Assembly (NCBI RefSeq): GCF_053078305.1
Contig: NZ_CP166875.1
DNA length: 64,000 nt
Reading direction: 5' to 3' (one strand)
From: a plasmid
Part shown: in pieces, positions 22,184 to 61,412 of the stretch
Numbering within the stretch: the first letter of the stretch is position 1
How the letters are laid out: each line of letters starts with the position of its first letter
Notes under the pieces: model-generated
What the model was told of the DNA's origin: nothing
What the model saw: only the letters and a program-made list of their open reading frames with translations
Databases searched by the model: none
Position numbers and translations under genes: made by a program

Positions 22184-22635
22184 TAATACCCCGACAAGAT
22201 TAAATTCTGGTTAACGATATCATTATACAGCGAATAATATAATTATGGTTCACGTATTATTATCCGTGACTCTTTCCTGGTAACTCCCGCATAATAACTT
22301 CACTTTTCCAGTATTCCAGAAGATGATGTTTTTTCCTCGATAATAAAAATGTGCCAATATGGAAATAAGAAATCGGATTTTTTATCAGCATACGCAAATT
22401 TTCAGATAACAATGAATACAGATGTATTTTATATACACAGATAAAACCGCGCAACAGACATAAATATGACAGTAGCATGAAAAAGCAGAGAGAGACAGGG
22501 TGATACAGAAAAGTAACTATTTTTTTAGCTATAGTATTATTGGTTTTACCTATTTTCGTGATTGTGTTTCTGTATATTGGGGGTTCGCGCCCATTTCCTC
22601 TAAAAGTCTCACCTTGCTTAGGTAATTAATTGAAT

Positions 22636-23217
22636 TTATTTATAAAACGTTGCAATTTTAGCATCATTTTTTATTGTTCTTTTTAACCTGAAGTACGTCG
22701 ATCGAGAGATACCTGTTTTTTCTGTCACACTGCCCAGAGATTCTCCCTGTGATATAAGCTCCAACGCTGTAGGCGTTCGTGGATGCTTCTTCCTGCCAAA
22801 TTTTACGCCTGCGGCAAGTGCCGCTATTCTTCCGTCGTTTGTCCGCTCCAGAATACGCTCACGTTCCGCTTCAGCTACAGCAGCAAGGATTTGGATAACC
22901 ATTTTGCCCATTGTCCCTTCTGTACTGAGACCGTTCTCCAGGAACCGGATGGCGATCCCCTTTTTGTAACAGCTATCAACCACACGAATCATGTCAGCAG
23001 TGTTACGCCCCAGTCGGTCCATTTTTGTACAGATGATTACGTCGTCTTTCTCTGCACGGGCCAACAACCGCTGTAGTCCTTCCCGTTCATCAGTTGCGCC
23101 AGTCATCATATCCGTAAAAATACGATCTTCCCGTACCCCGGCATTTTTTAGCTCCGAGATTTGATGTGTTAGCTTCTGATGACTGGTTGATACCCGTGCA
23201 TACCCCAATAACGCCAT
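22636..23217 (-). CDS. tnpR: Serine recombinase / resolvase
   Basis: N-terminal catalytic serine motif (GYARVSTSHQ), C-terminal HTH; divergent from the transposase gene. Confidence 0.85.
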   Translation of the reverse strand: MALLGYARVSTSHQKLTHQISELKNAGVREDRIFTDMMTGATDEREGLQRLLARAEKDDVIICTKMDRLGRNTADMIRVVDSCYKKGIAIRFLENGLSTEGTMGKMVIQILAAVAEAERERILERTNDGRIAALAAGVKFGRKKHPRTPTALELISQGESLGSVTEKTGISRSTYFRLKRTIKNDAKIATFYK

Positions 23218-23373
23218 TTTTAGTCTCACTTATCGTTTTTGACACTGCATGGTATCATAATGTACAAAATACGATTTTTGAAACCTGCTTTTATGCTGTT
23301 TTAGACAGGTATCAGATATCTTAATATTTGATACTAGCCATATTTAACAAATATTTAGCATTTTGGTAAATGT

Positions 23374-26300
23374 ATGCAGAAGTACAAGAAAAGAATTAGT
23401 ATATTAACAAAAAGTGAAATAAATGAATTATATCAAGTCCCCTCTTTTAATCCTGTTGAAAGGGATGAGTTTTTTTCGCTGGATATCAGCCTTAAAAGAG
23501 AAATTGATAAAATAATAAATATAGAAAGCAGGGTGTATCTGATATTAATAACAGGGTATTTCAGATATAAACCTGTGATTCCTGAATTTACATTAAAAGA
23601 CGTAAAAAGGGATGTGAAATATATTATCCAGACATATTATAAAAACGAAAGTACTAATCTCAATTTAAACATACCTAAAAGTACAAAGTACCGCCTTGTT
23701 AAACGAATGCTTTCTACTCTAGGATTTGAACAACTCACCCCATCTATAAAAAATGAGTTAAGTGAACGTCTGAATGATGTTGCTACTATATGTATGGAAC
23801 CAAAATATATTTTTGATGAATTACTTGCTTTTTTAGGACAGCGGCGTATAGCTCTTCCTGGATACAGTACTGTCCAGAACCTCGTTTCAGATGCTTTAAA
23901 CTTTGAAAGGAAAAGGACAATTAATATTTTGTCAAAGAGAATTTATCCTGCCACTGCACAAAAGATTACATCCATCATCCATGATGATGGAATATTAAAT
24001 TCCATCAGGGGATATAATTATAGCACGAGAGACTTCTCAGCATCAGAAATAGAAAATGAATTAAGAACTCACAATGTGATAAGTAGTATTTACTATGAAA
24101 TAAAAGATATAATTAATTCATTAGGTATATCCCAGGGAAACATGGAGTACTATGCAACTATCGTAAAACACAGTACAACATTCAGACTTAAGCGACACCC
24201 TAAATGGCAAGGAATACTTTATTTGTGCTGCTACTTGTACTTCAGATACAGAGAGATAAATGATAAAATAATCACAGCCTTCAGATATTTAGTAAAAAAA
24301 CATAAAGACGCTTCAGTTTTGTTTGCAAAAGCTCGGGCAACAGAGGAAATAGATCTAATAAATAAAAAGCTTAAGTTTGCGAGTAAAATATTTAACTTCT
24401 TCGTTGATAGTAACATTGAAGACAGCATCCCTTTTGGATATGTTCGTGAAAAGGTTTTTTCACTTATATCGAAAGATGATATGCATCTTGTGAGTGAATT
24501 TTTTGACAAAAATAAAATCGATGTAATTGAATATCAATGGCAGTATATTGACAGCCATCACCTTAAGATCGCCAATTCAATCCGAAAGCTTTTTCTGGCT
24601 ATAGATATAGTATATGACAACGAGAAGTCTGTTATTGGCCAGCAAATTACTGCTGCCAAGGATGATCTCAGAGGAAAAGGAAAGCTGGATGCTAAGGATC
24701 TGAGGGTAATTCATCCATCCGAGAAAAATTACATTGTAAAAGAAGGAGAAATTAACACTCAACGATTCGAATTTCATATGTACAGCAGGGTATCTAACCA
24801 TCTGGAAAACGGTGTCTTTTATGCTGCGGAGAGTGAACAAAACAAGAGACTGGAAGATGATCTCATAGAACGAAGTTACTGGCATAAGAATAAATCGATT
24901 TTGATAGAGAAAACAGGCCTTGAACGACTTATCACACCAATAACGCAGACTCTTAATGAGCTGGAGAATACCTTTAGCGATAAACTGGCTCGTATAACCA
25001 TTGGAATAAACTCAGATGCTAATGAGTTTGTGAAAAAACAACCACACTCCAACAGATTACAGTGGAGTCTGGCCAGTAAAAAATGGAAGACCAGCATCGA
25101 TAATCCGATTTACAATCAGATAAAAAATATCGGAATAGTTGACGTAATGAAGTATGTAAACAATGAGACGAATTTTTTGTCTGTGTTTAATGCCATATCA
25201 TCCAGGAAAAATAATCTTGAAGCTGACTATAATGACCTTCTTGCCTGTATATTTGGTAATGGCGCAAATTATGGTGTTCACAGAATGGCATCTGCATCAG
25301 ACCGTAGTATTGGAATACTACGTGATGTGAATGACAAATTCATTCGTCCAGAAACAACAGGAATGGCCAACACAGTAATATCTGATGCAATTGCAAATCT
25401 TTCTGTATATAAATACTGGACGATAAATGAAGATTCTCCATTTGGAAGTGTTGATGGGCAGAAGCACACTTGCAGAATAAATACATTTAAAGCCCGTTAT
25501 TCTGCCAAGTATTTCAGAAAGGGGAAAGGGGTTTCTGCGATGACACTGGTATCTAATCATGTGCCATTATCAACTGTGGTAATTTCTCCAAATGAATATG
25601 AAGGTCATTTTGCATTTGACTTGTTATATAACAACACCAGTGAAATACAACCAAAGTCATTAGCGACTGACAATCATGGTATAAACAACGTTAATTTTGC
25701 GATTCTTGACATTTTTGGCTATCAGTTTTCACCACGTTATGCAAAATTCAAGAAAATATTTAATGAATTATTTGATGTTATACTGGAGAGTGATAAACTC
25801 ATTATAAAACTTAAAAAACAATTTAACTTTAAGCTCATTGAACATGAATGGGAAAACATCCAACATATTATTTGTTCTTTAAGCAGAAAAACAACCATTC
25901 AAAGTACGGTTGTTAAGAAGTTATCTAATACAAAGCGTAGCAACAAGACATTAGCAGCACTTCGGGAGTATGACCGAGTTATAAAATGCATATATGTCCT
26001 GGATTATGCTGACAATAAAACCTTAAGGCAATTTGTGCAACAAGCACTGAACAGAGGTGAAGCTTATCATCAACTAAGAAGAGCAATAGCATCAGTAAAT
26101 GGAAATCAATTTCGCGGTGGTAATGACTACCAAATAGATCAATGGAACGACTGTGCGAGGTTAATAGCTAATTGTGTAATCTATTATAATTCAGCAATAT
26201 TATCCAGGCTGGTCGAGAAATTTGAAAAAGAAAATAATAAAAAAGCGATAGATGTTCTGGCTAACTTATCCCCAGTAGCATGGAGACACATTCTCCTTGG

Positions 26301-26412
26301 AGGGAATTATTCTTTTGAAGATCAAGTTGCGATCACAAATTTGGACAGTCTTTTGGAGGGAGTAGACCCACTAAGTGATATCGGAGATATTGAGTCCGAA
26401 TATGACGGTTAA
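23374..26412 (+). CDS. tnpA: Tn3-family DDE transposase
   Basis: 1012 aa, size and organisation typical of Tn3-family TnpA; AT-rich codon usage unlike the backbone. Confidence 0.8.
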   Translation: MQKYKKRISILTKSEINELYQVPSFNPVERDEFFSLDISLKREIDKIINIESRVYLILITGYFRYKPVIPEFTLKDVKRDVKYIIQTYYKNESTNLNLNIPKSTKYRLVKRMLSTLGFEQLTPSIKNELSERLNDVATICMEPKYIFDELLAFLGQRRIALPGYSTVQNLVSDALNFERKRTINILSKRIYPATAQKITSIIHDDGILNSIRGYNYSTRDFSASEIENELRTHNVISSIYYEIKDIINSLGISQGNMEYYATIVKHSTTFRLKRHPKWQGILYLCCYLYFRYREINDKIITAFRYLVKKHKDASVLFAKARATEEIDLINKKLKFASKIFNFFVDSNIEDSIPFGYVREKVFSLISKDDMHLVSEFFDKNKIDVIEYQWQYIDSHHLKIANSIRKLFLAIDIVYDNEKSVIGQQITAAKDDLRGKGKLDAKDLRVIHPSEKNYIVKEGEINTQRFEFHMYSRVSNHLENGVFYAAESEQNKRLEDDLIERSYWHKNKSILIEKTGLERLITPITQTLNELENTFSDKLARITIGINSDANEFVKKQPHSNRLQWSLASKKWKTSIDNPIYNQIKNIGIVDVMKYVNNETNFLSVFNAISSRKNNLEADYNDLLACIFGNGANYGVHRMASASDRSIGILRDVNDKFIRPETTGMANTVISDAIANLSVYKYWTINEDSPFGSVDGQKHTCRINTFKARYSAKYFRKGKGVSAMTLVSNHVPLSTVVISPNEYEGHFAFDLLYNNTSEIQPKSLATDNHGINNVNFAILDIFGYQFSPRYAKFKKIFNELFDVILESDKLIIKLKKQFNFKLIEHEWENIQHIICSLSRKTTIQSTVVKKLSNTKRSNKTLAALREYDRVIKCIYVLDYADNKTLRQFVQQALNRGEAYHQLRRAIASVNGNQFRGGNDYQIDQWNDCARLIANCVIYYNSAILSRLVEKFEKENNKKAIDVLANLSPVAWRHILLGGNYSFEDQVAITNLDSLLEGVDPLSDIGDIESEYDG

Positions 26413-26478
26413 CAACATGATAAATAATGGTTTTTATGCTAAGAGTGAGACTTTTGGAGGAAATGGGCGCAGAACCCC

Positions 26479-39384: not shown

Positions 39385-39665
39385 TGTCAGTATTCTGGCT
39401 GGAAGTCCTCAGTACACGCTCGTAAGCGGCCCTCACGGCCCGCTAACGCGGAGATACGCCCCGACTTCGGGTAAACCCTCGTCGGGACCACTCCGACCGC
39501 GCACATAAGCTCTATCATAGCTGACAGCGGGTATGGCTTTGCAGGGTGGGGATGGGTAAGGTGAAATCTATCAATCAGTACCGGCTTACGCCGGGCTTCG
39601 GCGGTTTTACTCCGGTATCACATGTAACCACAGCGTGCCGCCTTACATGCGCTGACGCGCATAAA
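39385..39665 (+). repeat. Repeat family D copy 1 (about 280 bp, upstream of a toxin-antitoxin cassette)
   Basis: Near-identical to 41273-41548 and partially to 49862-49950; contains GC hairpins including a terminator-like cgccgggcttcggcggtttta. Confidence 0.6.
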
Positions 39666-40810: not shown

Positions 40811-41085
40811 TGGAACTGAAGTGGACCAGTAAGGCGCTTTCTGATTTGGCGCGGTTATATGATTTTCTGGTGCTGGCCAGTAAACCTGCCGCCGCCAGAA
40901 TGGTACAGTCCCTGATACAGGCACCGGTCATTCTGTTAACTCATCCACGTATGGGAGAACAGTTGTTTCAGTTTGAACCCAGGGAGGTCAGACGGATTTT
41001 TGCTGGCGAGTACGAAATCCGTTACGAACTTAATGGGCTGCGTTTGGGAAACGTACAATATTGTACGGTTGCGCTATTGCGGTAG
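40810..41085 (+). CDS. ParE/RelE-family toxin
   Basis: 91 aa, coupled to the upstream RHH antitoxin. Confidence 0.55.
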   Translation: MELKWTSKALSDLARLYDFLVLASKPAAARMVQSLIQAPVILLTHPRMGEQLFQFEPREVRRIFAGEYEIRYELNGLRLGNVQYCTVALLR

Positions 41086-41272
41086 GGTGTACTCCAACGC
41101 TATACGGTATTTGGCAGACCTTTAGGGACATGAGATAACCTAAATGCAATAAGAGAAAAGCAATAACTTAAAGGCGATAGCTGATCACGATGAATCAATC
41201 AGTTACTTATCCGCATCGATTAAAAAATGCTCCTAACGTACAATAATTCCGTTTCCCAAACCGACCCCTCAG

Positions 41273-41548
41273 TGTTCTGGCTGGAAGTCCTCAGTACACG
41301 CTCGTAAGCGGCCCTGACGGCCCGCTAACGCGGAGATACGCCCCGACTTCGGGTAAACCCTCGTCGGGACCACTCCGACCGCGCACAGAAGCTCTCTCAT
41401 GGCTGAAAGCGGGTATGGCTTAACAGGGTGGGAATGGGATAGGCGAAATCTATCAATCAGTACCGGCTTACGCCGGGCTTCGGCGGTTTTACTCCGGTAT
41501 CACATGTAACCACAGCGTACCGCCTTCCATGCCGCTGGCGCGGCATAT
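41273..41548 (+). repeat. Repeat family D copy 2
   Basis: Near-identical to D1. Confidence 0.6.
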
Positions 41549-41600
41549 CATGGTGACGATATCTGAATCGTTATATACTGTGTATATACGTGGTAATGAC

Positions 41601-41700
41601 GAGGTGATAAATGGCACAGGTTAATATGAGTTTAAGAATCGACGCTGAACTGAAGGATGCTTTTATGGGGTCAGCCTGGAATTCGGAAAATAAACCACGT
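41601..41700 (+). pseudogene. RelB/DinJ-like antitoxin N-terminal fragment, truncated by a miniature element
   Basis: MAQVNMSLRIDAELKDAF then runs straight into the GGGG terminus of the Tn3-type inverted repeat. Confidence 0.5.
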
Positions 41701-41856
41701 TAAGACTATTTTTTAGCCAAATGACTGTCAGGAATCCGGACGGTCGGAACATTTCGTACAGCCTTTACGTTCAGTGAGTTAGCTGGCCTGGATGTAACCA
41801 CTCGTTCAACTCAATTCTCTTAGCGTGGGAAAATTTCCGTTTTCCAAGCGGACCCC
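41667..41856 (+). mobile_element. Tn3-derived miniature element (TIME-like, 190 bp)
   Basis: Left IR GGGGTCAGCCTGGAATTCGGAAAATAAACCACGTTAAG (41667-41704) and right IR, reverse complement GGGGTCCGCTTGGAAAACGGAAATTTTCCCACGCTAAG (41819-41856); no coding capacity. Confidence 0.65.
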
Positions 41857-41875
41857 TAGAAGAAGGGAAGCGATA

Positions 41876-42292
41876 TCAAGCCCAGGGATTAATAATTGAT
41901 ACTCCGGTTAATTCAAAATCACCAACATTTCTGGTTACAACCGTCATCCCATGTACCAGCGCCGTTGCTGCGATCAATGCGTCTCGTTCACTGCGCCTGT
42001 CGGGAACATGTAAACGAGAACAACGTAATGCAACCGCAGTATCTACAGGAAGTATCTTATCAGAAAACGCTGGTAACACATGCTGATCCATCCAAGAACG
42101 TAGCATAATCCCTTGTCGCATATCTCGACGTTCAACTTGTAATATTCCCTGTTCAAGTTCCATTATGGAAATAACAGAAATAAAGAAATCTGCCGCATCT
42201 GTATGCAATACCCATTTTGCAACATTATTATCTATACGTCCTGTCCGAGCCTTCCGTAGCTCAGAGATAACATTAGTATCAAGAATATACAC
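41876..42292 (-). CDS. vapC: PIN-domain toxin VapC
   Basis: 138 aa starting MYILDTNVISELRK; PIN acidic residues. Confidence 0.8.
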   Translation of the reverse strand: MYILDTNVISELRKARTGRIDNNVAKWVLHTDAADFFISVISIMELEQGILQVERRDMRQGIMLRSWMDQHVLPAFSDKILPVDTAVALRCSRLHVPDRRSERDALIAATALVHGMTVVTRNVGDFELTGVSIINPWA

Positions 42293-42546
42293 TATAAAAA
42301 CTCCGCAGGTTTTAAACTAACCGTAATACGAGGCGGTTCAAATTCAACTGCATCAGCATCGGGCATCGCCAGAATGTCAATGAGAGTTCGTCGTTGTTGC
42401 GTCAATTTTCGGTATTCTTCGATACTAAGAAGTACATGTGCGGTTTTACCCCGATCAGTAATAAATACTGGACCATAATTCGTGGCGCGTTTGGCTCGAG
42501 TTACATCTTGATTAAGTTCCCGACTGGATAGGGTTGTAATCTTCAT
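42292..42546 (-). CDS. vapB: Antitoxin VapB (Phd/YefM-type)
   Basis: Start refined to MKITTLSSREL; overlaps vapC start. Confidence 0.7.
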   Translation of the reverse strand: MKITTLSSRELNQDVTRAKRATNYGPVFITDRGKTAHVLLSIEEYRKLTQQRRTLIDILAMPDADAVEFEPPRITVSLKPAEFL

Positions 42547-42657
42547 GCTGTTGCCTTTTGATGTATATAGGTACGTTACTACATTGTAGGGCATGAAATA
42601 GTACAATGCAAGAAATGTACTTGATTAGGGGTAGTCTTCGCCGCTTGTTGCTGTCAG

Positions 42658-42692
42658 ATATTAATGCTAATGTATGCATACATTAGCATTAA
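42658..42692. promoter_or_regulatory. Perfect 34-bp palindrome attaatgctaatgtatgcatacattagcattaat, copy 1
   Basis: Directly visible; identical copy at 47242-47275. Confidence 0.6.
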
Positions 42693-42729
42693 TGAGGGAT
42701 GATATGTGAGAGACAAAACCAGGGAGGCC

Positions 42730-43068
42730 ATGCGGTTTTTTTTAGGCGGCAGGTGTTACACGGCTGAAAACCTTGAAAAGGATTATCTGGCTGAAGTTGC
42801 TAATTACAGTGACGACCGCTGGGAAGCACCCCAACGCGCCGCACGTCTGGCAGCTGCCGTAAAGCGTTACAAGACATCAGAAATGCTGCGCTTTATTTTT
42901 GCTACCACTGCCTACGATCCCGATCCAGATTTAACCCCGCTGACTGTGAGACGTTTGTGCAAGGCATTGTTCGGCAGAACAGGAAGCCAGTGGCTGGTTG
43001 TTGAAGTTTTTGGGGAGAAGGGGCGTCAGCACCGCAGCGCGGACAGCAATCCGGAGATGGTGGAAAAA
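42730..43068 (+). pseudogene. Hypothetical gene (about 160 aa when rejoined), 5' part, interrupted by Tn3-family copy 2
   Basis: ATG with RBS agggagg; frame continues across the transposon into 46969-47214. Confidence 0.5.
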
Positions 43069-43125
43069 GGGGGTTCGCGCCCATTTCCTCTAAAAGTCTC
43101 ACCTTGCTTAGGTAATTAATTGAAT

Positions 43126-43707
43126 TTATTTATAAAACGTTGCAATTTTAGCATCATTTTTTATTGTTCTTTTTAACCTGAAGTACGTCGATCGAGAGAT
43201 ACCTGTTTTTTCTGTCACACTGCCCAGAGATTCTCCCTGTGATATAAGCTCCAACGCTGTAGGCGTTCGTGGATGCTTCTTCCTGCCAAATTTTACGCCT
43301 GCGGCAAGTGCCGCTATTCTTCCGTCGTTTGTCCGCTCCAGAATACGCTCACGTTCCGCTTCAGCTACAGCAGCAAGGATTTGGATAACCATTTTGCCCA
43401 TTGTCCCTTCTGTACTGAGACCGTTCTCCAGGAACCGGATGGCGATCCCCTTTTTGTAACAGCTATCAACCACACGAATCATGTCAGCAGTGTTACGCCC
43501 CAGTCGGTCCATTTTTGTACAGATGATTACGTCGTCTTTCTCTGCACGGGCCAACAACCGCTGTAGTCCTTCCCGTTCATCAGTTGCGCCAGTCATCATA
43601 TCCGTAAAAATACGATCTTCCCGTACCCCGGCATTTTTTAGCTCCGAGATTTGATGTGTTAGCTTCTGATGACTGGTTGATACCCGTGCATACCCCAATA
43701 ACGCCAT
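43126..43707 (-). CDS. tnpR: Serine recombinase / resolvase (copy 2)
   Basis: Identical to 22636-23217. Confidence 0.85.
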   Translation of the reverse strand: MALLGYARVSTSHQKLTHQISELKNAGVREDRIFTDMMTGATDEREGLQRLLARAEKDDVIICTKMDRLGRNTADMIRVVDSCYKKGIAIRFLENGLSTEGTMGKMVIQILAAVAEAERERILERTNDGRIAALAAGVKFGRKKHPRTPTALELISQGESLGSVTEKTGISRSTYFRLKRTIKNDAKIATFYK

Positions 43708-43863
43708 TTTTAGTCTCACTTATCGTTTTTGACACTGCATGGTATCATAATGTACAAAATACGATTTTTGAAACCTGCTTTTATGCTGTTTTAGACAGGT
43801 ATCAGATATCTTAATATTTGATACTAGCCATATTTAACAAATATTTAGCATTTTGGTAAATGT

Positions 43864-46800
43864 ATGCAGAAGTACAAGAAAAGAATTAGTATATTAACAA
43901 AAAGTGAAATAAATGAATTATATCAAGTCCCCTCTTTTAATCCTGTTGAAAGGGATGAGTTTTTTTCGCTGGATATCAGCCTTAAAAGAGAAATTGATAA
44001 AATAATAAATATAGAAAGCAGGGTGTATCTGATATTAATAACAGGGTATTTCAGATATAAACCTGTGATTCCTGAATTTACATTAAAAGACGTAAAAAGG
44101 GATGTGAAATATATTATCCAGACATATTATAAAAACGAAAGTACTAATCTCAATTTAAACATACCTAAAAGTACAAAGTACCGCCTTGTTAAACGAATGC
44201 TTTCTACTCTAGGATTTGAACAACTCACCCCATCTATAAAAAATGAGTTAAGTGAACGTCTGAATGATGTTGCTACTATATGTATGGAACCAAAATATAT
44301 TTTTGATGAATTACTTGCTTTTTTAGGACAGCGGCGTATAGCTCTTCCTGGATACAGTACTGTCCAGAACCTCGTTTCAGATGCTTTAAACTTTGAAAGG
44401 AAAAGGACAATTAATATTTTGTCAAAGAGAATTTATCCTGCCACTGCACAAAAGATTACATCCATCATCCATGATGATGGAATATTAAATTCCATCAGGG
44501 GATATAATTATAGCACGAGAGACTTCTCAGCATCAGAAATAGAAAATGAATTAAGAACTCACAATGTGATAAGTAGTATTTACTATGAAATAAAAGATAT
44601 AATTAATTCATTAGGTATATCCCAGGGAAACATGGAGTACTATGCAACTATCGTAAAACACAGTACAACATTCAGACTTAAGCGACACCCTAAATGGCAA
44701 GGAATACTTTATTTGTGCTGCTACTTGTACTTCAGATACAGAGAGATAAATGATAAAATAATCACAGCCTTCAGATATTTAGTAAAAAAACATAAAGACG
44801 CTTCAGTTTTGTTTGCAAAAGCTCGGGCAACAGAGGAAATAGATCTAATAAATAAAAAGCTTAAGTTTGCGAGTAAAATATTTAACTTCTTCGTTGATAG
44901 TAACATTGAAGACAGCATCCCTTTTGGATATGTTCGTGAAAAGGTTTTTTCACTTATATCGAAAGATGATATGCATCTTGTGAGTGAATTTTTTGACAAA
45001 AATAAAATCGATGTAATTGAATATCAATGGCAGTATATTGACAGCCATCACCTTAAGATCGCCAATTCAATCCGAAAGCTTTTTCTGGCTATAGATATAG
45101 TATATGACAACGAGAAGTCTGTTATTGGCCAGCAAATTACTGCTGCCAAGGATGATCTCAGAGGAAAAGGAAAGCTGGATGCTAAGGATCTGAGGGTAAT
45201 TCATCCATCCGAGAAAAATTACATTGTAAAAGAAGGAGAAATTAACACTCAACGATTCGAATTTCATATGTACAGCAGGGTATCTAACCATCTGGAAAAC
45301 GGTGTCTTTTATGCTGCGGAGAGTGAACAAAACAAGAGACTGGAAGATGATCTCATAGAACGAAGTTACTGGCATAAGAATAAATCGATTTTGATAGAGA
45401 AAACAGGCCTTGAACGACTTATCACACCAATAACGCAGACTCTTAATGAGCTGGAGAATACCTTTAGCGATAAACTGGCTCGTATAACCATTGGAATAAA
45501 CTCAGATGCTAATGAGTTTGTGAAAAAACAACCACACTCCAACAGATTACAGTGGAGTCTGGCCAGTAAAAAATGGAAGACCAGCATCGATAATCCGATT
45601 TACAATCAGATAAAAAATATCGGAATAGTTGACGTAATGAAGTATGTAAACAATGAGACGAATTTTTTGTCTGTGTTTAATGCCATATCATCCAGGAAAA
45701 ATAATCTTGAAGCTGACTATAATGACCTTCTTGCCTGTATATTTGGTAATGGCGCAAATTATGGTGTTCACAGAATGGCATCTGCATCAGACCGTAGTAT
45801 TGGAATACTACGTGATGTGAATGACAAATTCATTCGTCCAGAAACAACAGGAATGGCCAACACAGTAATATCTGATGCAATTGCAAATCTTTCTGTATAT
45901 AAATACTGGACGATAAATGAAGATTCTCCATTTGGAAGTGTTGATGGGCAGAAGCACACTTGCAGAATAAATACATTTAAAGCCCGTTATTCTGCCAAGT
46001 ATTTCAGAAAGGGGAAAGGGGTTTCTGCGATGACACTGGTATCTAATCATGTGCCATTATCAACTGTGGTAATTTCTCCAAATGAATATGAAGGTCATTT
46101 TGCATTTGACTTGTTATATAACAACACCAGTGAAATACAACCAAAGTCATTAGCGACTGACAATCATGGTATAAACAACGTTAATTTTGCGATTCTTGAC
46201 ATTTTTGGCTATCAGTTTTCACCACGTTATGCAAAATTCAAGAAAATATTTAATGAATTATTTGATGTTATACTGGAGAGTGATAAACTCATTATAAAAC
46301 TTAAAAAACAATTTAACTTTAAGCTCATTGAACATGAATGGGAAAACATCCAACATATTATTTGTTCTTTAAGCAGAAAAACAACCATTCAAAGTACGGT
46401 TGTTAAGAAGTTATCTAATACAAAGCGTAGCAACAAGACATTAGCAGCACTTCGGGAGTATGACCGAGTTATAAAATGCATATATGTCCTGGATTATGCT
46501 GACAATAAAACCTTAAGGCAATTTGTGCAACAAGCACTGAACAGAGGTGAAGCTTATCATCAACTAAGAAGAGCAATAGCATCAGTAAATGGAAATCAAT
46601 TTCGCGGTGGTAATGACTACCAAATAGATCAATGGAACGACTGTGCGAGGTTAATAGCTAATTGTGTAATCTATTATAATTCAGCAATATTATCCAGGCT
46701 GGTCGAGAAATTTGAAAAAGAAAATAATAAAAAAGCGATAGATGTTCTGGCTAACTTATCCCCAGTAGCATGGAGACACATTCTCCTTGGAGGGAATTAT

Positions 46801-46902
46801 TCTTTTGAAGATCAAGTTGCGATCACAAATTTGGACAGTCTTTTGGAGGGAGTAGACCCACTAAGTGATATCGGAGATATTGAGTCCGAATATGACGGTT
46901 AA
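43864..46902 (+). CDS. tnpA: Tn3-family DDE transposase (copy 2)
   Basis: Identical to 23374-26412. Confidence 0.8.
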   Translation: MQKYKKRISILTKSEINELYQVPSFNPVERDEFFSLDISLKREIDKIINIESRVYLILITGYFRYKPVIPEFTLKDVKRDVKYIIQTYYKNESTNLNLNIPKSTKYRLVKRMLSTLGFEQLTPSIKNELSERLNDVATICMEPKYIFDELLAFLGQRRIALPGYSTVQNLVSDALNFERKRTINILSKRIYPATAQKITSIIHDDGILNSIRGYNYSTRDFSASEIENELRTHNVISSIYYEIKDIINSLGISQGNMEYYATIVKHSTTFRLKRHPKWQGILYLCCYLYFRYREINDKIITAFRYLVKKHKDASVLFAKARATEEIDLINKKLKFASKIFNFFVDSNIEDSIPFGYVREKVFSLISKDDMHLVSEFFDKNKIDVIEYQWQYIDSHHLKIANSIRKLFLAIDIVYDNEKSVIGQQITAAKDDLRGKGKLDAKDLRVIHPSEKNYIVKEGEINTQRFEFHMYSRVSNHLENGVFYAAESEQNKRLEDDLIERSYWHKNKSILIEKTGLERLITPITQTLNELENTFSDKLARITIGINSDANEFVKKQPHSNRLQWSLASKKWKTSIDNPIYNQIKNIGIVDVMKYVNNETNFLSVFNAISSRKNNLEADYNDLLACIFGNGANYGVHRMASASDRSIGILRDVNDKFIRPETTGMANTVISDAIANLSVYKYWTINEDSPFGSVDGQKHTCRINTFKARYSAKYFRKGKGVSAMTLVSNHVPLSTVVISPNEYEGHFAFDLLYNNTSEIQPKSLATDNHGINNVNFAILDIFGYQFSPRYAKFKKIFNELFDVILESDKLIIKLKKQFNFKLIEHEWENIQHIICSLSRKTTIQSTVVKKLSNTKRSNKTLAALREYDRVIKCIYVLDYADNKTLRQFVQQALNRGEAYHQLRRAIASVNGNQFRGGNDYQIDQWNDCARLIANCVIYYNSAILSRLVEKFEKENNKKAIDVLANLSPVAWRHILLGGNYSFEDQVAITNLDSLLEGVDPLSDIGDIESEYDG

Positions 46903-46968
46903 CAACATGATAAATAATGGTTTTTATGCTAAGAGTGAGACTTTTGGAGGAAATGGGCGCAGAACCCC

Positions 46969-47214
46969 ACTGTGAGACGTTTGTGCAAGGCATTGTTCGG
47001 CAGAACCGGAAGCCAGTGGCTGGTTGTTGAAGTTTTTGGGGAGAAGGGGCGTCAGCACCGCAGCGCGGACAGCAATCCGGAGATGGTGGAAAAAATGGCT
47101 GCCAGATATCGTCATGCCGCCGAACTACACTGGTCCGCAACGCTGGCAGAAATTGAACGGGTAAAGCGGCTTTATCAGACGAAAATTAAGAAATCCAAAA
47201 AAGAAGTGGGTTGA
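46969..47214 (+). pseudogene. 3' part of the interrupted hypothetical gene
   Basis: Repeats residues LTVRRLCKALF...EMVEK of the 5' part, then continues to a stop. Confidence 0.5.
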
Positions 47215-47241
47215 CTGCCATTGTTATTCTTTTCCTTCATC

Positions 47242-47275
47242 ATTAATGCTAATGTATGCATACATTAGCATTAAT
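47242..47275. promoter_or_regulatory. Perfect 34-bp palindrome, copy 2
   Basis: Identical to copy 1. Confidence 0.6.
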
Positions 47276-47299
47276 GATGGTGCGTTGAACGTACAATAA

Positions 47300-47420
47300 G
47301 GGGTCCGCTTGGAATTCGGAAATTTTCCCACGCTAAGTGAATTGAGTTGAACGAGTGGTTACATCCAGGCCAGCTAACTCACTGAACGTAAAGACTGTAC
47401 GAAATGTTCCGACCGTCCGA
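47300..47420 (+). repeat. Solo Tn3-type terminus: inverted copy of the right 120 bp of the miniature element
   Basis: Begins GGGGTCCGCTTGGAATTCGGAAATTTTCCCACGCTAAG; reverse complement of 41739-41856; no partner IR found to its right. Confidence 0.6.
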
Positions 47421-47577
47421 TAACCATTTGGCTTACTTCCGTACATTTCCTTGCGTAGATGTACAGAATTGTACGTTTTCGTACGGTTGGCCCTCAAACC
47501 CCATCCTTGAGTAGTGGCATAAGAAAACGGCTCCCTGTTGTGGAAGCCGTTATCAGTTGCACGATTAGCATTGGAGT

Positions 47578-48003
47578 TTAAAGGATACCTTTCTGAGAAA
47601 ATGTGATCCGGGTTGCTTCATTTAAATCCATATATTTTAGGGTGTCAGGAGATGCCCAGACTATATCCTGAAACTCCTCATTAAATGTAACTGTACGGTT
47701 TGTACTGATACAGTCGAATATTAGGTAAATCATGTAAATGTCCTCGTGGGTACCATCCGGGTACGTTTTTGTACGGATATCATCACGAAAGGCCCAGGGT
47801 TTTACGTCAGTGATATGCAGTTCTTTTCCCAGTTCTTCCTTTATTTCACGCCTCAATGCTGTTTCCATAGTCTCTCCGGGTTCCATTCCTCCACCGGGCA
47901 GTGCCCATTGGCCCGGGAATACTCCGCGATCAGAGGCCATTTTACAAAGTAGAAACTCACCTTCATTTTGTATCACAGGGCACACTATTACTCTCTGGCG
48001 CAT
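47578..48003 (-). CDS. Nudix hydrolase
   Basis: Nudix box [23 protein letters not shown]; low-GC operon. Confidence 0.8.
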
Positions 48004-48004
48004 T

Positions 48005-48739
48005 TTATGTCCTCAACATCATGGCTTTTTGGATAACCTTATCAGAAAAATCATCAATGTCATCCGGGTGAGCACATACCATAATCCGCTCACGAAGGTG
48101 TAACGGAAGATTATCAGTAAAATGTTGATATTCCGCATGCCATCCTGTGATCCATTTTATCTTCATTTCCTCATCTGGAAATTCTTCAGGCCGTACACCA
48201 TGAATTTCATCATCATTGAGATGCATGAGTGAATGTGCGATGGGATAATTAATGAATGCTATAATGTCTGGCTCTGTAAGTAATTCATTTATTCTACTCC
48301 AGAGCACCATGTATGCATCATATTGTGCTTTATTTATATATTCGGACTTCAGCATGAAGTTGATAAAAATATAATCCTCAATATGGGATCTCTCCATAAT
48401 AAGGTTAAACCCTTTATCCAGCCAAGATTTTATCAGTAATGCCCGTTGTATCATAAAATTAAGCTGGATTAGATAACCGTAGTTACTGGTATCGTCAAAA
48501 AGGTAAGGAAGGAGAGTGTGGTGGACACTTTTTTCATCTATCGCGACAGTGTCTGGATCTACCTTAAATAACTCCTTTGACATGCGTCTCAGAAGAGTAC
48601 TTTTACCTACACCGGAATTACCCGACAGACATATATACAGAGGATTTCGAGTTTTATTCTTCTCTTTTTTATCTGCTGACCAAGGATCCATATACAAGTA
48701 ATTATATCTCATACTGTAAACTCCATTTTGTCCAACCAA
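48005..48739 (-). CDS. P-loop nucleoside/nucleotide kinase (dNK/TMK-like)
   Basis: Walker [10 protein letters not shown] in an about 240 aa protein; overlaps both neighbours; start uncertain. Confidence 0.6.
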
Positions 48740-49575
48740 AAGCGGTTGTTCTTACATTTTTGCATGATTTCATTATTTCCGAAAATTGCACTGATTATAT
48801 GATCTTGTGAATCTGTCAGCATATTTCCCAACAGAGTATAGTTTTCTCCATCAGGGATAATAATGTCAAAATTGGGTTCCATAACAACATTGGCTTTGTC
48901 CCGTTCTTCGAAAGTTGCCCAACTAATGGGCATGTTAGGGTGTTGTTTTTTTAGCATTACCATTTTCTCTTTAAATATATCCGTATTGATTTCCAGTTTA
49001 TCTCTTTTTTCTTTTCCGACTCCTAGAGGACAGAACTGGTAAAATCGCCAAGCTTGGATCTTATAGGGCAGAGAATCAACCCAGCAAACAATATCACTGA
49101 GATGATTAATGTTAGACTGAGATACGACGGTCGTGAGTTTTATATTAATTCGATTATTATTTTGGGGTAACCATGTTAATATATTTTTGATAACCCTGTG
49201 TTGGTTACTCATTTTATCACTGCGAATTTCTGAATTGACAAGACTGTCAATTCCATCAATTGGTATTCCTACCCAGTCTAACACCGGATTTAACCGAGCA
49301 TGATCCATAATAAATCGATGCCCGACCGTGGAGAGATATGTCATAAAACCCAGTTGCTTAGCGTATTCAATCAGATCAATGAAATCACTCCGGGATGTAG
49401 GTTCCCCTCCGGTAAAACCGATACGACGGAATCCCATTTTATACATCCGCTCAATTACATTACGAGCACTAGCAAGAGAAGAGTCCTGAATTCCAGGTGT
49501 ACGAAAACACTGATCACATCCTAGGTTACAATGTGAAGTTATTCTGAAATCTAAAAGAAGGGTGCTAATATCCAT
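48709..49575 (-). CDS. Radical SAM enzyme, viperin-like (prokaryotic viperin candidate)
   Basis: CxxxCxxC (SHCNLGCDQCF), GGEP motif (IGFTGGEPT), and C-terminal WRFYQFCPLG region resembling viperin RWKVFQCLLIEG; 288 aa. Confidence 0.6.
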   Translation of the reverse strand: MDISTLLLDFRITSHCNLGCDQCFRTPGIQDSSLASARNVIERMYKMGFRRIGFTGGEPTSRSDFIDLIEYAKQLGFMTYLSTVGHRFIMDHARLNPVLDWVGIPIDGIDSLVNSEIRSDKMSNQHRVIKNILTWLPQNNNRINIKLTTVVSQSNINHLSDIVCWVDSLPYKIQAWRFYQFCPLGVGKEKRDKLEINTDIFKEKMVMLKKQHPNMPISWATFEERDKANVVMEPNFDIIIPDGENYTLLGNMLTDSQDHIISAIFGNNEIMQKCKNNRFWLDKMEFTV

Positions 49576-49861
49576 AACAAGTCCTCTGACTATGATACAT
49601 CAATAACCATTAAAACATAATGGTTATTGCAGACCATGACAAAGCGCAACCTTCGGCTTACCAGGGATATAATATCTGCCAGTAATCAGAGCAGTGGGTT
49701 GCGCAAGGAACTCATGAATGATGAGTTCCGGTAATCGCATTACTGGAAGCCCATGATCGGAGGGACGCTATCAGTCACACCAGTGAAAATTGTGCACAGA
49801 AGCATTTTCATCACTGACAGGCCGTATGCCTCACAAGACGGGAGATAACTGGAGAATATTT

Positions 49862-49950
49862 AGTTCTTCTACCGGCTTACGCCGATTTTACTCCTGTGTT
49901 ATATGTAACCACTGTGTGCCACCTTCCATGCGCTGGTGCGGCATCAGAGT
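49862..49950 (+). repeat. Repeat family D copy 3 (3' portion only)
   Basis: Matches the 3' 85 bp of D1/D2; followed by a TA cassette. Confidence 0.5.
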
Positions 49951-50059
49951 AAAAAATCAGCATTAAATTTATTTGCAAATGTATGAGTAATACAGACTTG
50001 TTAACGGGTCCTTTCAGATGTATCTTTAAGACTTATTAAACAGTCTTAAAAGGTGCATT

Positions 50060-50311
50060 ATGCCTAACATCATTCTGTCTGACATCAGTGCAAGTGTCAG
50101 TGAACTGAAAAAAAATCCGATGGCGACAGTCGGTGCTGGTGATGGTTATCCGGTCGCCATTCTGAATCGCAATCAGCCGGCATTCTACTGTGTTCCTGCT
50201 GAACTGTATGAAAGGATGCTTGATGCTCTGGATGACCAGGAGCTGGTGAAACTGGTTACTGAACGTAGCAGTCAACCTCTGCATGATGTTGACCTGGACA
50301 GTTATTCATGA
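50060..50311 (+). CDS. Phd/YefM-family antitoxin
   Basis: 83 aa; stop overlaps start of the downstream toxin. Confidence 0.65.
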   Translation: MPNIILSDISASVSELKKNPMATVGAGDGYPVAILNRNQPAFYCVPAELYERMLDALDDQELVKLVTERSSQPLHDVDLDSYS

Positions 50312-50595
50312 CTTATACGATAAAATTCAGGGATGATGCGCTTAAAGAATGGCTGAAACTGGATAAGACCATTCAACAACAGTTTGTGAAAAAACTAAAA
50401 AAATGTAGCAAAAATCCTCATATACTGTCTGCAAAACTACGTGGGCTAAAGGACTGCTACAAAATTAAACTTCGTGCATCGGGATTTCGTCTGGTTTATC
50501 AGGTGATTGATGATATGTTAATTATTGCGGTTGTTGCGGTAGGTAAACGAGAACGTAGTAACGTTTATTATCTCGCCAGTGAGAGAATGAGATAG
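50308..50595 (+). CDS. RelE/ParE-family toxin
   Basis: 95 aa; coupled to the YefM-like antitoxin. Confidence 0.65.
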   Translation: MTYTIKFRDDALKEWLKLDKTIQQQFVKKLKKCSKNPHILSAKLRGLKDCYKIKLRASGFRLVYQVIDDMLIIAVVAVGKRERSNVYYLASERMR

Positions 50596-50759
50596 TAACA
50601 TAAATAGCCTTTCCCGCAGATAACTCTCAGAATTGTTATTCTCTCTGTGGCCTCGCCTGAGGCGGAAAAAGAAAAGTTTTGTTGAGAGAATGATTTTACC
50701 TGCCGGGATGAGTCTGGGGTTATTTATATTACCAGACAAATTGAAACGGAGGGACATGT

Positions 50760-51167
50760 TTGATGACAATACTTGTGACGGCACAGGCTCAACTCATAGT
50801 TGGTGAGGCTATGGCGATAAAAAGTTTAGCTCCTGATGGAATGTTGGCCGCTGTATTTGAAGACGACGGGAATACCGGATATTTCTATGCACTTGATGAG
50901 TCCGTTGAAGGTAACCCTGTCAGGGATGCTGTGCATATATATAACGTTGAAGACATTTCAGATGCTCACATCCCCTCTGATGTGAAGATTGGCTGGTCTG
51001 AGGATTGCCTGAAGTGTGTTCTGCTGATAAACGGATATCCACATGGGGTATTCGATTTTGAGGGGAAGAACGGCTACTGTCGAAGTGGATTCCCGCCACC
51101 GGTTAATCATGAATGGTCTGTTCAGGGGCATTCATGGGATGATTACGTCGATAATTTCTTCCGGTGA
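50760..51167 (+). CDS. Hypothetical protein (DUF2251-like)
   Basis: 135 aa ORF; no recognised motif. Confidence 0.4.
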   Translation: MMTILVTAQAQLIVGEAMAIKSLAPDGMLAAVFEDDGNTGYFYALDESVEGNPVRDAVHIYNVEDISDAHIPSDVKIGWSEDCLKCVLLINGYPHGVFDFEGKNGYCRSGFPPPVNHEWSVQGHSWDDYVDNFFR

Positions 51168-51475
51168 TTGAACCGAAAAATTACCTGACGGACAAGTCTG
51201 GGGCCGAATCGTGATGATTCATCATGGCCGTTTATAGTTCAGCAGTCTTGTTCTTTTGCTGTCAGTGGGATACCAGGAAAATAACCGATTGTTACCAGAC
51301 AGAATAACCATCATAAGACGTCACAAGACGGTGACGCTTACATAGTTCCGGGGAGTTAAACAATATACCCTGACTTTGTAATCATTTGAATTATATCCGT
51401 AACGTGTAACTTCCTGCCGTAACACCGGATTTAAGATATTCAAACTTTATCTTTATACCGATATTAAGAGACACA

Positions 51476-52960
51476 ATGCGAAAAATAATTGCTCATTTCA
51501 AGATAGTTTTAACCTTACTTTTGCCCGCAACAGTATCTGCCCAGTCGATAGAGTGGCAATCCTGTATGACCACTCCATTTAGTAACTGGTTTGGTGAGGA
51601 AAAACCGTCTCCTGACTTACTATGTGGTTATTTGTCTGTTCCATTAAAATATACAGACACAGGCGGAGATAGTTCTTCTGTAAAAAGACAGCAGGTAAAA
51701 CTGGCGCTGACAAAATTGCCAGCAAAAAGCAGGCATAAAGGGAGTATCATTATAATAAGTGGTGGACCAGGATTACCTGGCATTAATCCTTATATTAACT
51801 TTGACTGGCCGGTAACAAATCTTCGCGAATCATGGGATATTATTGGCTTTGATCCACGGGGAGTCGGCCAGTCCATTCCTGCAATAAACTGCCAGCAATC
51901 AGATACAGGGATTCAGGAAAACATAACTGAAAAGCAACGGGTATTAAATAAAATTAACAGCTGTATCCATAATACCGGAACTGAAGTTATTCGCCATATT
52001 GGTTCTAACGAGGCGGTATATGATATTGATCGTATCAGGCAAGCCCTGGGTGACGAGCAACTGACAGCTGTGGCATATTCGTATGGAACACAAATTGCAG
52101 CCTTATATGCAGAACGTTTCCCATCCAGCATCAGATCTATCGTTCTTGATGGGGTCGTCGATATTGATGACCTGGGGGACAACTTCACATGGCAACTCAA
52201 ACAAGCACAGAGTTATCAGGAAACGTTCGATCGCTTTGCATCCTGGTGTGCACGTACAAAAAGTTGCCCACTTTCTTCAGTCAGAGATAAGGCAATAACT
52301 CAGTTCCATGAGCTGTTATCAAAATTGCATCACAAGCCTTTATTAGACAGCAAGGGAGAAAATATATCTTCAGATGAACTCATATTATTAACAACAGACC
52401 TTTTGTTATGGCGTTCATCATGGCCAACCCTTGCAACTGCCATACGTCAGTTCTCTCAGGGGATTGTCAGTAATGAAATTGAAACTGCGCTCAGTACTCC
52501 TATAGCCTCAGAAGAGTCAAGTGATGCTCTGGGGGTAATCCTTTGTGTTGATCAGGGGGGGGAGCAATTAACCCCAGAAGAGCGAAAATCCCGAAAAGAC
52601 GCTCTTGCGAATGCCTTCCCGGCTATTAACTTTGACAATGGACGTTCCGATTCACCTGATTTTTGTGAATTATGGCCAATACATAGCAACCTGAATAAAA
52701 CCCGGCTGAAAAATACAGTTCTGCCCTCTGGTTTACTGTTTGTAGCACACAAATACGATCCAACAACACCATGGATTAATGCTCGTAAGATGGCAGAGAA
52801 ATTTTCCAGCCCGTTGCTGACAATAAATGGTGATGGGCATACATTAGCTCTTACCGGAGTCAATTTATGTGTAGATAAGGCCGTTGTTCGTCATCTTATC
52901 ACCCCTATGAAAATGGGAAATATATCCTGTCCAGGAAATGCTGAAATAGATATAAAATAG
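51476..52960 (+). CDS. Secreted alpha/beta-hydrolase (S33 peptidase-like)
   Basis: Signal peptide; nucleophile elbow AYSYGT (GxSxG); 494 aa. Confidence 0.6.
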   Translation: MRKIIAHFKIVLTLLLPATVSAQSIEWQSCMTTPFSNWFGEEKPSPDLLCGYLSVPLKYTDTGGDSSSVKRQQVKLALTKLPAKSRHKGSIIIISGGPGLPGINPYINFDWPVTNLRESWDIIGFDPRGVGQSIPAINCQQSDTGIQENITEKQRVLNKINSCIHNTGTEVIRHIGSNEAVYDIDRIRQALGDEQLTAVAYSYGTQIAALYAERFPSSIRSIVLDGVVDIDDLGDNFTWQLKQAQSYQETFDRFASWCARTKSCPLSSVRDKAITQFHELLSKLHHKPLLDSKGENISSDELILLTTDLLLWRSSWPTLATAIRQFSQGIVSNEIETALSTPIASEESSDALGVILCVDQGGEQLTPEERKSRKDALANAFPAINFDNGRSDSPDFCELWPIHSNLNKTRLKNTVLPSGLLFVAHKYDPTTPWINARKMAEKFSSPLLTINGDGHTLALTGVNLCVDKAVVRHLITPMKMGNISCPGNAEIDIK

Positions 52961-54062: not shown

Positions 54063-54416
54063 GTATGTATATAAGGAGTGCATTCATTATGCCAATGAAG
54101 CTTGTAAAGAAGAATCCCCGGAGCAAAGTGATTCGGGAGCTTAGCTGTGAGCAAGAGATGGCAGTAAAGGCGGTCTGCGGACTGAAAAAACAGCAACTAC
54201 GGCACTACATGCCCTGGCCAATGATCTTCTCCGGGAAATGCGTGAGTATGATGCATGGTTACAGTGTGACTGTATTCCGGGAGATTCGCCGACCATGAAT
54301 TTTGCTGCTCTTAAAAACAACACGGGAACTTTTTATCTGTCCAGTTTGGATATAGATAATTATTGTACTAATAAGGGAAGCCAACACCAGCCGACAGACC
54401 AGACGCCGCTGCTCAT

Positions 54417-58558: not shown

Positions 58559-59035
58559 TCCTTAATAAGCATATTTGACGGGGTTGAGTCTGGCCTTTTA
58601 TTGGGGCTGTCACTGGCACACTGAAAGTGAATACAGTTCCGGGCGCGGAAATCCTGCCTGCTGCGCCGGTAAAGGCGACTGACTGGTATTACGGGAGGCC
58701 AGAGAGCCAGTACCTGTGCCGGTAGACTGTGTGGCTGAACCATAAACATAGTGTCCTGGACAACGGTACAGCACTCTGTGCAGCTGTGTCAGCATGCGCT
58801 TTTCTTTAATTATGCCCAGTCATGTGCGGAGGCAAGGATTTCAAAATATCCGTTACATTTGTTGCATGATGCCTTATCGCTGGTCCGGGCTATTGCTTTA
58901 CTTCTTTTAAATCAGCTCTGATGAACATTTTTTACCACTTTATCGCATTAAGGTTATGTCATTCATCGTCTGGCATCACGTTTTTGGTTATGGTGTCAGG
59001 GTGTACCCTACCGCGATAACGCAACCCTAATAAAG

Positions 59036-60779: not shown

Positions 60780-61412
60780 TTGTCGCACATGTTGATTGGT
60801 TATATGCGGGTATCAAGCAATGATGAACGTCAGTCAGTTTCTTTGCAGCGTGATGCGTTGATTGCTGCCGGAGTGGATCCCCGGCATTTACATCAGGATC
60901 ATGCTTCAGGTGCTCGTGATAATCGCCCGGGACTTAAGTCCTGTCTCGCTGAACTTCGCGAAGGTGATGTACTGATAGTCTGGAAACTGGATCGACTTGG
61001 TCGTTCACTCTCACATTTGCTCCGAATTATTGAAGACCTGAAAATTCGTGGTATTGCTTTCCGATCATTGACTGAATCTATTGATACAACAACGCCACAC
61101 GGCTCGTTCCTCTTTAACCTTTTTGGCACGCTCGCGGAGTACGAAAGAGCACTTATCACAGAACGCGTTAATGCTGGTCTGGCTGCTGCTCTCCGGCGGG
61201 GGCGAAAAGGCGGAAGGCCACCGGCGATAGATGCTGAAAAGGTTGATCAAATCCTCGCAGCTCTGGAAGGAGGTGCCAGTAAAGCGTCAGTATGTCGCGC
61301 ATTCAGTGTGCCACGCTCAACACTCACCGATACTCTACGACGAATTGGCTGGGCCGGACCTGGGGGCCGTAATCTGACAACGGATCAGAGCAATGTCATT
61401 TCTCGACGCTAA
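60780..61412 (+). CDS. tnpR: Serine recombinase / resolvase
   Basis: Catalytic serine motif (GYMRVSSNDERQ); C-terminal HTH. Confidence 0.85.
   Translation: MSHMLIGYMRVSSNDERQSVSLQRDALIAAGVDPRHLHQDHASGARDNRPGLKSCLAELREGDVLIVWKLDRLGRSLSHLLRIIEDLKIRGIAFRSLTESIDTTTPHGSFLFNLFGTLAEYERALITERVNAGLAAALRRGRKGGRPPAIDAEKVDQILAALEGGASKASVCRAFSVPRSTLTDTLRRIGWAGPGGRNLTTDQSNVISRR

Follow-up and report, generated by a model that had tools for sequence, protein, structure and literature searches.

A 203-bp chimeric miniature element of Tn3 ancestry beside a viperin-like module of a mosaic F-type plasmid

In a 64,000-nucleotide stretch of plasmid DNA (the window), positions 47300-47502 are a closed, chimeric and non-autonomous miniature element derived from the Tn3 family (a TIME), 203 bp in length, which we call T203. 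One of its ends is a Tn21-like terminal inverted repeat (IR) and the other is an IR of the IS101/gamma-delta type. We are confident that such a closed chimeric TIME stands here at a seam of the mosaic plasmid. The explanation that accounts best for the findings as a whole is that the seam of the chimeric TIME arose by an exchange of arms at res site I, which we consider probable. The proposal that a resolvase carried out the exchange is more tentative, and we would place it slightly below an even chance.

Anatomy of T203 and its immediate neighbours

The features of T203, of its left flank and of ME190, the other element of its kind in the window, are listed below with their coordinates in the window and their strand.

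47300-47502, plus strand: T203, with GGGG...CCCC termini, no open reading frame (ORF) of note, and the flanks AATAA (left) and ATCCT (right)
47280-47299, plus strand: left flank of T203, the inner part of a relic MITESen1-like IR (…AACGTACAATAA, up to the junction) in pO26-L-like backbone
47300-47337, plus strand: IR_A, a 38-bp Tn21-like terminal IR (GGGGTCCGCTTGGAATTCGGAAATTTTCCCACGCTAAG), the counterpart of the T286-family IRR
47383-47401, minus strand: putative unit of the res site III type, TGAACGTAAAGACTGTACG, collinear with the subsite nearest to tnpR in the element at L014
47414-47445, minus strand: putative res site II-like unit of 32 bp with the inverted half-sites CGTCCGATA ... TGTACGGAA
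47460-47485, no strand assigned: res site I-like unit of 26 bp, TGTACAGAATTG-TA-CGTTTTCGTACG, with the central TA at 47472-47473
47471-47502, minus strand: IR_G, an IS101/gamma-delta-type terminal IR (GGGGTTTGAGGGCCAACCGTACGAAAACGTAC) with its terminus at 47502 facing right
41667-41856, plus strand: ME190, a 190-bp element that derives from T286 and has lost 96 bp internally, including site I and some of site II

The arms 41737-41857 and 47299-47419 are complementary at 117 of 121 bases (97% over 121 nt), which is far beyond chance. Both contain a 38-bp Tn3-family IR that starts with GGGG and reads GGGGTCCGCTTGGAA(AA/TT)CGGAAATTTTCCCACGCTAAG, and IR_A differs from the IRR of ME190 by two mismatches. 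An earlier reading of this DNA, made from the sequence only, had taken the copy at 47300 for an inverted repeat of the right end of the 41667-41856 element and for a Tn3-type IR with subterminal sequence, kin to that element; both statements agree with our results. It had also described the copy as solo. The lack of a partner IR holds for the IR_A type, since a scan of the 64-kb window that allowed up to 15 mismatches in 38 positions found no further copy, and so none downstream of 47300. It does not hold for a heterologous partner: 165 bp away, and so within a few hundred base pairs to the right, the IS101-type IR at 47471-47502 closes the 203-bp unit and is in substance the partner that had been reported missing. 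The scan for the IR_A type did not return it because the two IRs of T203 belong to different subgroups, Tn21-like and IS101/gamma-delta-like, which agree at only about 15 of 38 positions. The end of the copy, placed at 47420 in the sequence-only reading, is merely the limit of the match to ME190, and in comparison with 286-bp relatives the homology reaches about 47470-47484. The termini had been drawn as facing away from the segment between the two elements, but the IRR termini at 41856 and 47300 abut this segment and face it.

The IS101-type IR was spotted by reading the window side by side with pFHI_NMBU_11_02 (locus L001) and was then checked against pSC101. IR_G has the CCCC terminus and matches the IRL of the pSC101 element IS101 at 31 of 32 bases; a pattern search for it gave one match in the window and none in 100 shuffled sequences. 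The switch from T286-type sequence to the IS101-type IR falls in the GTAC at 47471-47474. An Erwinia element shares GTACAATTCT, so the IS101-type IR may natively run 6 nt past this GTAC, and IR_G may thus extend to 47465, which would blur the exact junction. The left arm of T203 is the IRR arm of T286, consisting of the Tn21-like IR, a spacer of about 45 bp, the res-like units III and II, and half of site I, and the IS101-type end supplies the second half-site from the inner part of its IR. The terminus at 47502 is a genuine insertion boundary: homology to uninterrupted nudI-flanking sequence starts exactly at 47503, at 100% in NZ_CP027341.1 and at 96% in pO103 and its relatives. On the other side, pO26-L is uninterrupted at the site of the left flank, where …AACGTACAATAA is directly followed by TTTCGAATATCCAAACTGA… and the unbroken sequence reads …CAATAATTTCGAATATCCAAACTGA.

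T203 has the two inverted Tn3-family IRs with GGGG termini that define a TIME, and its length lies within the 50-500 bp of this class, with no transposase gene. The 5-bp (or 6-bp) target duplication that is also expected of a TIME is missing, the flanks being AATAA and ATCCT. Copies of the family occupy many loci, an indirect sign that a Tn3-family transposase may mobilise it in trans. The only ORF that overlaps T203 is a 54-aa frame on the minus strand (47333-47497). T203 is non-coding and probably inert here, because neither a cognate resolvase nor a cognate transposase is encoded in the window.

To the right of T203, and outside it, lies a module of three genes (47503-49575, minus strand).

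47578-48003, minus strand: NudI-like Nudix hydrolase (NCBIfam NF012016, 250 bits against a cut-off of 95)
48005-48739, minus strand: P-loop deoxynucleoside-kinase-like protein, annotated as a deoxynucleoside kinase in pFHI_NMBU_11_02
48709-49575, minus strand: prokaryotic viperin-like radical SAM protein (PADLOC pVip 'associated with kinases', E 1.6e-30)

The pVip match next to a P-loop kinase-like protein gives these genes the make-up of a pVip defence module, with NudI also present; with the viperin model of NCBIfam the radical SAM protein scored 84 bits, below the cut-off of 180 bits. The GC content of the kinase and viperin genes is 35-38%, and the earlier description of the module as low in GC and viperin-like is borne out by this value and by the pVip match. 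The same description had placed the module where the interior of the element would be. The module instead starts at 47503, where the homology to the uninterrupted nudI flank begins. It is neither the cargo of a broken Tn3-type element nor trapped in one, but adjoins a closed TIME. The complete viperin/kinase/NudI module was found in PLSDB only in NZ_CP045714.1, and its nudI part in NZ_CP027341.1.

The T286 family and its res-like subsites

T286 is a 286-bp element that is common on enterobacterial plasmids, and its copy at 101013-101298 of CP061266.1 is bordered by a clean 5-bp duplication, TTATA. The search of PLSDB returned at least 1,671 plasmid records with at least 80% of the 203-nt query and at least 656 with at least 80% of T286, and the counts for the T286 family exceed those published for TIME244 or MITESen1. 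The family matches include NC_002134.1, which we take to be R100. When T286 matches in PLSDB were sampled evenly, about one third of them stopped at positions 112-115. We found no description of T286 in the literature, and it is not among the TIMEs given with sequences by Gomi and Yano 2026 (PMC13367494), which are IS101, IMU, MITESen1, TIME244 and MITEKpn1.

The IRL arm of T286 has a native setting at L014 (AP026455.1), where it lies inside an 852-bp IR-bounded element that encodes a serine recombinase (L014:1716-2306). The element (L014:1501-2352, AP026455.1 18564-19415) has T286-type IRs that enclose only a three-subsite res and the recombinase gene. Its order is IRL, 72 bp, TGTCCGAAATCGACCGGTTTCGGACA (26 bp), 14 bp, TATCCGAAAGTCAGCGAAATTACTTTCGGACA (32 bp, with inverted half-sites), 12 bp, TGTACACCCATTTCGTACA, 12 bp, the recombinase gene from its ATG, and then IRR, which is the classical three-subsite res layout. 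It is a resolvase-only mini-transposon that has no transposase, and the IRL arm of T286 likely came from it. The L014 element and T286 are near-identical as far as position 112 of T286, which is the centre of the 26-bp unit, and diverge beyond it; the half-sites of T286 are collinear with those of L014 (101, 118, 141, 164 and 182/185). The units of 26, 32 and about 19 bp found in T203 are likewise collinear with the L014 region between IRL and the recombinase gene, and together they may constitute a functional res, judging from this collinearity. The centre of site I at L014 is AC and not TA, so that the L014 element is not the direct parent. None of the recombinases in the 64-kb window is more than 38% identical to the L014 recombinase.

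The same junction point occurs in other combinations. In pFHI_NMBU_11_02, the IRL arm of T286 meets the IS101-type IR, with its right flank, at the same GTAC, and the product is a 145-bp element, which we call T140. It has neither site II nor site III, and its flanks in this plasmid, ATCCA and ATCCT, agree at four of five positions. T140-type elements are widespread and old, an example being that adjoining pemIK in pEC-81009 (87% identity). The architecture of T203 itself was found at three loci with differing flanks on the IS101 side, namely in the window, in NZ_CP022913.1 (95% identity, with an internal deletion) and in p948 of ETEC H10407 (89% identical, truncated on the left). A scan of genome contigs for the T203 junction returned no more copies of T203 and only one other sequence, a 113-bp IS101-like miniature element of Erwinia sp. 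ErVv1 (L016:~785-900, on the 633-kb contig NZ_CDPK01000002.1). The Erwinia element consists of its two IRs and one site I, which is 28 bp long and gamma-delta-like (TGTCTGATATATCGCAATATAATAGACA).

Taken by halves, TGTCCGAAATCG is joined to three different right halves (in T286, T140 and L014) and the IS101-type half to at least four continuations (in T203, T140, IS101 and the Erwinia element). IS101 itself has only one good half-site in its IS101-type IR.

Origin of the joint

T203 is a chimera with mosaic flanks, and its junction point is shared by several independent elements. We tentatively attribute the joint to a resolvase and not to short homology. Two miniature elements of related type, sited apart or even in separate plasmids, would have taken part: one lay beside the viperin module, and the other at the relic IR of the pO26-L-like segment, perhaps in a second plasmid. 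The centre of res site I, the TA at 47472-47473, would be where a serine resolvase acting in trans exchanged their arms. The left arm would have been swapped together with its flank, which would leave T203 with no target duplication, and the palindromic central TA would permit joining in either orientation. We favour arm exchange at site I because the half-units combine freely at the centre of the 26-bp unit, as a resolvase crossover would leave them. The model predicts two reciprocal products: a T286 or T203 copy at the relic IR of pO26-L (…CAATAA joined to GGGG…, with AATAATTTCGAAT on the far side), and a symmetric element of the form IRL-72-TGTCCGAAATCG-TA-CGATTTCGGACA-72-IRL'. No reciprocal product was found.

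Elements of this size have been linked to site-specific recombination before. IS101 has been reported to carry a functional res, and for TIME244 the proposal is that it carries a res of three subsites and that its copies undergo inversion or deletion through res (PMC13367494). Against the resolvase stands the fact that the T140 partner lacks sites II and III, and complete res sites on both partners are normally required by wild-type resolvases. The absence from the window of a close relative of the L014 recombinase, the single good half-site in the IR of IS101, the AC centre of L014, the possible extension of the IS101-type IR past GTAC and the missing reciprocal product also weigh against the model. 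So does the fact that a crossover inside the shared 32-bp IR would yield an indistinguishable product.

This last point leads to an explanation that needs no resolvase, in which a T203- or T286-type copy at the pO26-L-like site would have recombined with the element beside the viperin module by the homologous or short-homology recombination of the host. The crossover would have fallen in the shared 32-bp IS101-type IR or in a 5-15-bp GTACG patch. A crossover anywhere in 47471-47502 would indeed yield an identical product, T286 and the IS101-type IR share the patch xGTACGxTTTCGxAC at 12 of 15 positions, and the window has no cognate resolvase. However, 32 bp is the lower limit for RecA-dependent exchange, and the joint of the type seen in pFHI_NMBU_11_02, between the IRL arm and the IS101-type IR, has only CGTAC in common. 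Moreover, the same central point is that of the switch between L014 and T286, where there is no flanking homology on the right. We regard host recombination as a rather unlikely origin of the joint.

T203 could instead have moved as a unit, or by one-ended transposition, with the help of a Tn3-family transposase acting in trans, if an adjacent deletion or another event later removed one copy of the 5-bp duplication together with the original flank. Such movement would fit the three loci at which the T203-type architecture has differing IS101-side flanks, as well as the agreement at four of five positions between the flanks of the element in pFHI_NMBU_11_02. Autonomous Tn3-family transposons with IS101-type IRs are carried by Escherichia plasmids (L017), and these also speak for it. 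What makes this account improbable is that the IRs of T203 come from different Tn3 subgroups and that no T203-type copy seen has a duplication; in addition, it does not explain why the differences between pFHI_NMBU_11_02 and the window are confined to the left side of the GTAC that they share.

Hybrids generated at res sites, like TIMEs, are established concepts, and T203 falls within a known kind. Hybrid transposons of the Tn3 family, for example those of Tn1/Tn2/Tn3 and of the Tn21 subgroup, have arisen through crossover by a resolvase at res site I. As in those transposons, the sequence switches of the elements studied here fall exactly at a site I-like centre; the difference is that the partners here are miniature and non-autonomous, that one half-site lies inside a terminal IR, and that catalysis by a resolvase is presumed. 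IS101, the 209-bp TIME of pSC101, is mobilised and resolved by gamma-delta/Tn1000 functions. T203 resembles it in being small, non-coding and Tn3-derived, in its res or res-like interior and in its right end, the IS101-type IR described above. It is not a copy of IS101, because identity over the whole 209 bp is absent: the match is confined to the IR (27-32 nt), the interior of T203 shows no detectable similarity, and the other IR is Tn21-like and not IS101-like. With TIME244/MITEEc2 and IMU, the Tn21-subgroup TIMEs of Enterobacteriaceae, T203 shares the type of IR_A, which has 9-11 mismatches in 38 positions to the Tn21 IR. Their interiors, compared by reading, are unlike T203 in the sequences of Table S2 of PMC13367494, and the ends of T203 are heterologous. 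MITESen1, a 256-bp TIME, is of the same class and has left relics in the window, and the inner part of a MITESen1-like IR forms the left flank of T203. It is nevertheless a different element, the target or neighbour of T203 and not T203 itself.

A broader picture would have T286, T140 and T203 belong to one large family of TIMEs that carry a res, reside on F-type plasmids and serve as portable sites of crossover. Resolvases in trans would shuffle their arms along with the flanking toxin-antitoxin or defence cassettes, and the inner part of the IS101-type IR would serve as a cryptic resolvase half-site. We put this forward as a speculation and think it doubtful. Unannotated elements of 140-290 bp do sit at several of the cassette boundaries examined, as ME190, T203 and the copies in pFHI_NMBU_11_02 and p03_3013-1 show. 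Annotating such elements and their site I centres would help to trace how F-type plasmids swap maintenance and defence modules, although the gain is incremental.

Mosaic surroundings and the relation to ME190

BLAST comparison of 39-52 kb of the window with fetched plasmid loci showed that its parts match different plasmids. The match of pSTEC17_183-a covers 41460-43068 at 98.8% identity, that of pO26-L covers 46969-47299 at 99.4%, and that of pFHI_NMBU_11_02 covers 47467-52000 at 99.8%. T203 marks an ordinary recombination seam, at which two lineages of a mosaic F-type plasmid were joined. The sequence-only reading had suspected a rearrangement at this place, and in this it was right, since a 5-bp duplication is lacking and the two flanks trace to different plasmid lineages. 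The segment between the two elements (41857-47299) is itself of two lineages, one like pSTEC17_183-a and the other like pO26-L, joined across the following transposon.

43069-46968, plus strand: 3.9-kb Tn3-family transposon, inserted in a hypothetical gene, with the IRs GGGGGTTCGCGCCC…
43126-43719, minus strand: tnpR of the transposon
43864-46902, plus strand: tnpA of the transposon

This transposon was rejected as the cognate of T203, its IRs (GGGGGTTCGCGCCC…) being unrelated. Immediately on either side of it, 126 bp of the interrupted gene are present as a direct repeat (42943-43068 and 46969-47094, 99% identical). There is no 5-bp duplication, the flanks being AAAAA and ACTGT, and the left side is like pSTEC17_183-a and the right side like pO26-L. 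This suggests that two copies of the transposon, inserted 126 bp apart in homologous genes, recombined. The window holds two direct copies of the transposon, at 22579-26478 and 43069-46968, which are 100% identical (3900/3900). No 5-bp target duplication was found at either copy, and the flank pairings of a cointegrate type are all mismatched. The plasmid pFHI_NMBU_11_01 was tested as the partner plasmid and ruled out. In p03_3013-1, a T286 lies inside the same hypothetical gene at another position.

ME190 interrupts a yacA-like antitoxin gene and has no target duplication (TTTAT on one side and TAGAA on the other). Its flanks are identical in plasmids that have no partner element, for example pSTEC17_183-a, in which ME190 is accompanied by vapBC and an intact hypothetical gene. 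T203 retains most of the 96 bp that are missing from ME190, and 4 of 121 positions distinguish the two. Because ME190 lacks the 96 bp retained at 47300, neither was copied from the other; ME190 is an older, independent and internally deleted copy.

The sequence-only reading had proposed that ME190 and the copy at 47300 are the footprint of an inversion or deletion mediated by a Tn3-family element. In its replicative form, intramolecular transposition would have produced an inverted second copy, the intervening DNA would have been inverted or deleted, and the far end would then have been lost. Two inverted IRR ends do flank 41857-47299, which is the geometry expected of such an event. No pairing of the flanks of ME190 and T203 (TTTAT, TAGAA, AATAA/TTATT and ATCCT), however, gives a 5-bp duplication, and the window contains neither of the reciprocal flanks: the sequence that continues the relic IR in pO26-L is missing, as is the left side of the nudI-flank target. 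The 96 bp and the 4 differences just described, together with the identical flanks of ME190 where no partner is present, also argue against the event. Furthermore, the far end is present as the IS101-type IR, which is common to pFHI_NMBU_11_02, and the bracketed segment is a two-lineage mosaic joined across the transposon. We therefore consider an inversion or deletion that involved ME190 highly improbable, and the bracket geometry is an accident of mosaic assembly.

The exact arrangement, which is rare or recent, was not found in 72,556 PLSDB plasmids or in 5,426 complete E. coli genomes. This rarity and the several repeats of the family in the window would also fit an assembly misjoin, in which a repeated element of 120-190 bp collapsed two loci, but such an error is very improbable, because ME190, the only other copy in the window, lacks 47420-47470 and cannot template the join, and because the junction is consistent with T203-type copies elsewhere.

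Several other repeats were noticed in the window. The hypothetical gene has on either side of it a nearly perfect palindrome, ATTAATGCTAATGTATGCATACATTAGCATTAAT, of about 40 bp (42660-42702 and 47233-47280), which occurs also in pO26-L, pSTEC17_183-a and pFHI_NMBU_11_01. MITESen1-like Tn3-family relics, with an IR and a res-like CGTACAATATTGTACGG palindrome, are present at 41036-41269 and also at 54337-54374 and 58907-59026. In pFHI_NMBU_11_02, MITESen1-like IRs enclose the gene of a 213-aa serine recombinase (L001:4938-5579). This gene was considered as the plasmid's own multimer-resolution system and rejected, as it sits inside a relic bounded by MITESen1-like IRs. A third serine recombinase gene of the window (60780-61325, plus strand) encodes a protein about 35% identical to the transposon tnpR product and to the L014 recombinase. 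A repeated segment of about 70-264 bp (78-95% identical) precedes three toxin-antitoxin cassettes, at 39387-39650, 41269-41532 and 49794-49940, and looks like a shared promoter or boundary module. Finally, a tandem array of a 9-bp unit (CGAAACCAC) at 947-1032, with at least six copies in register, probably encodes a peptide repeat.
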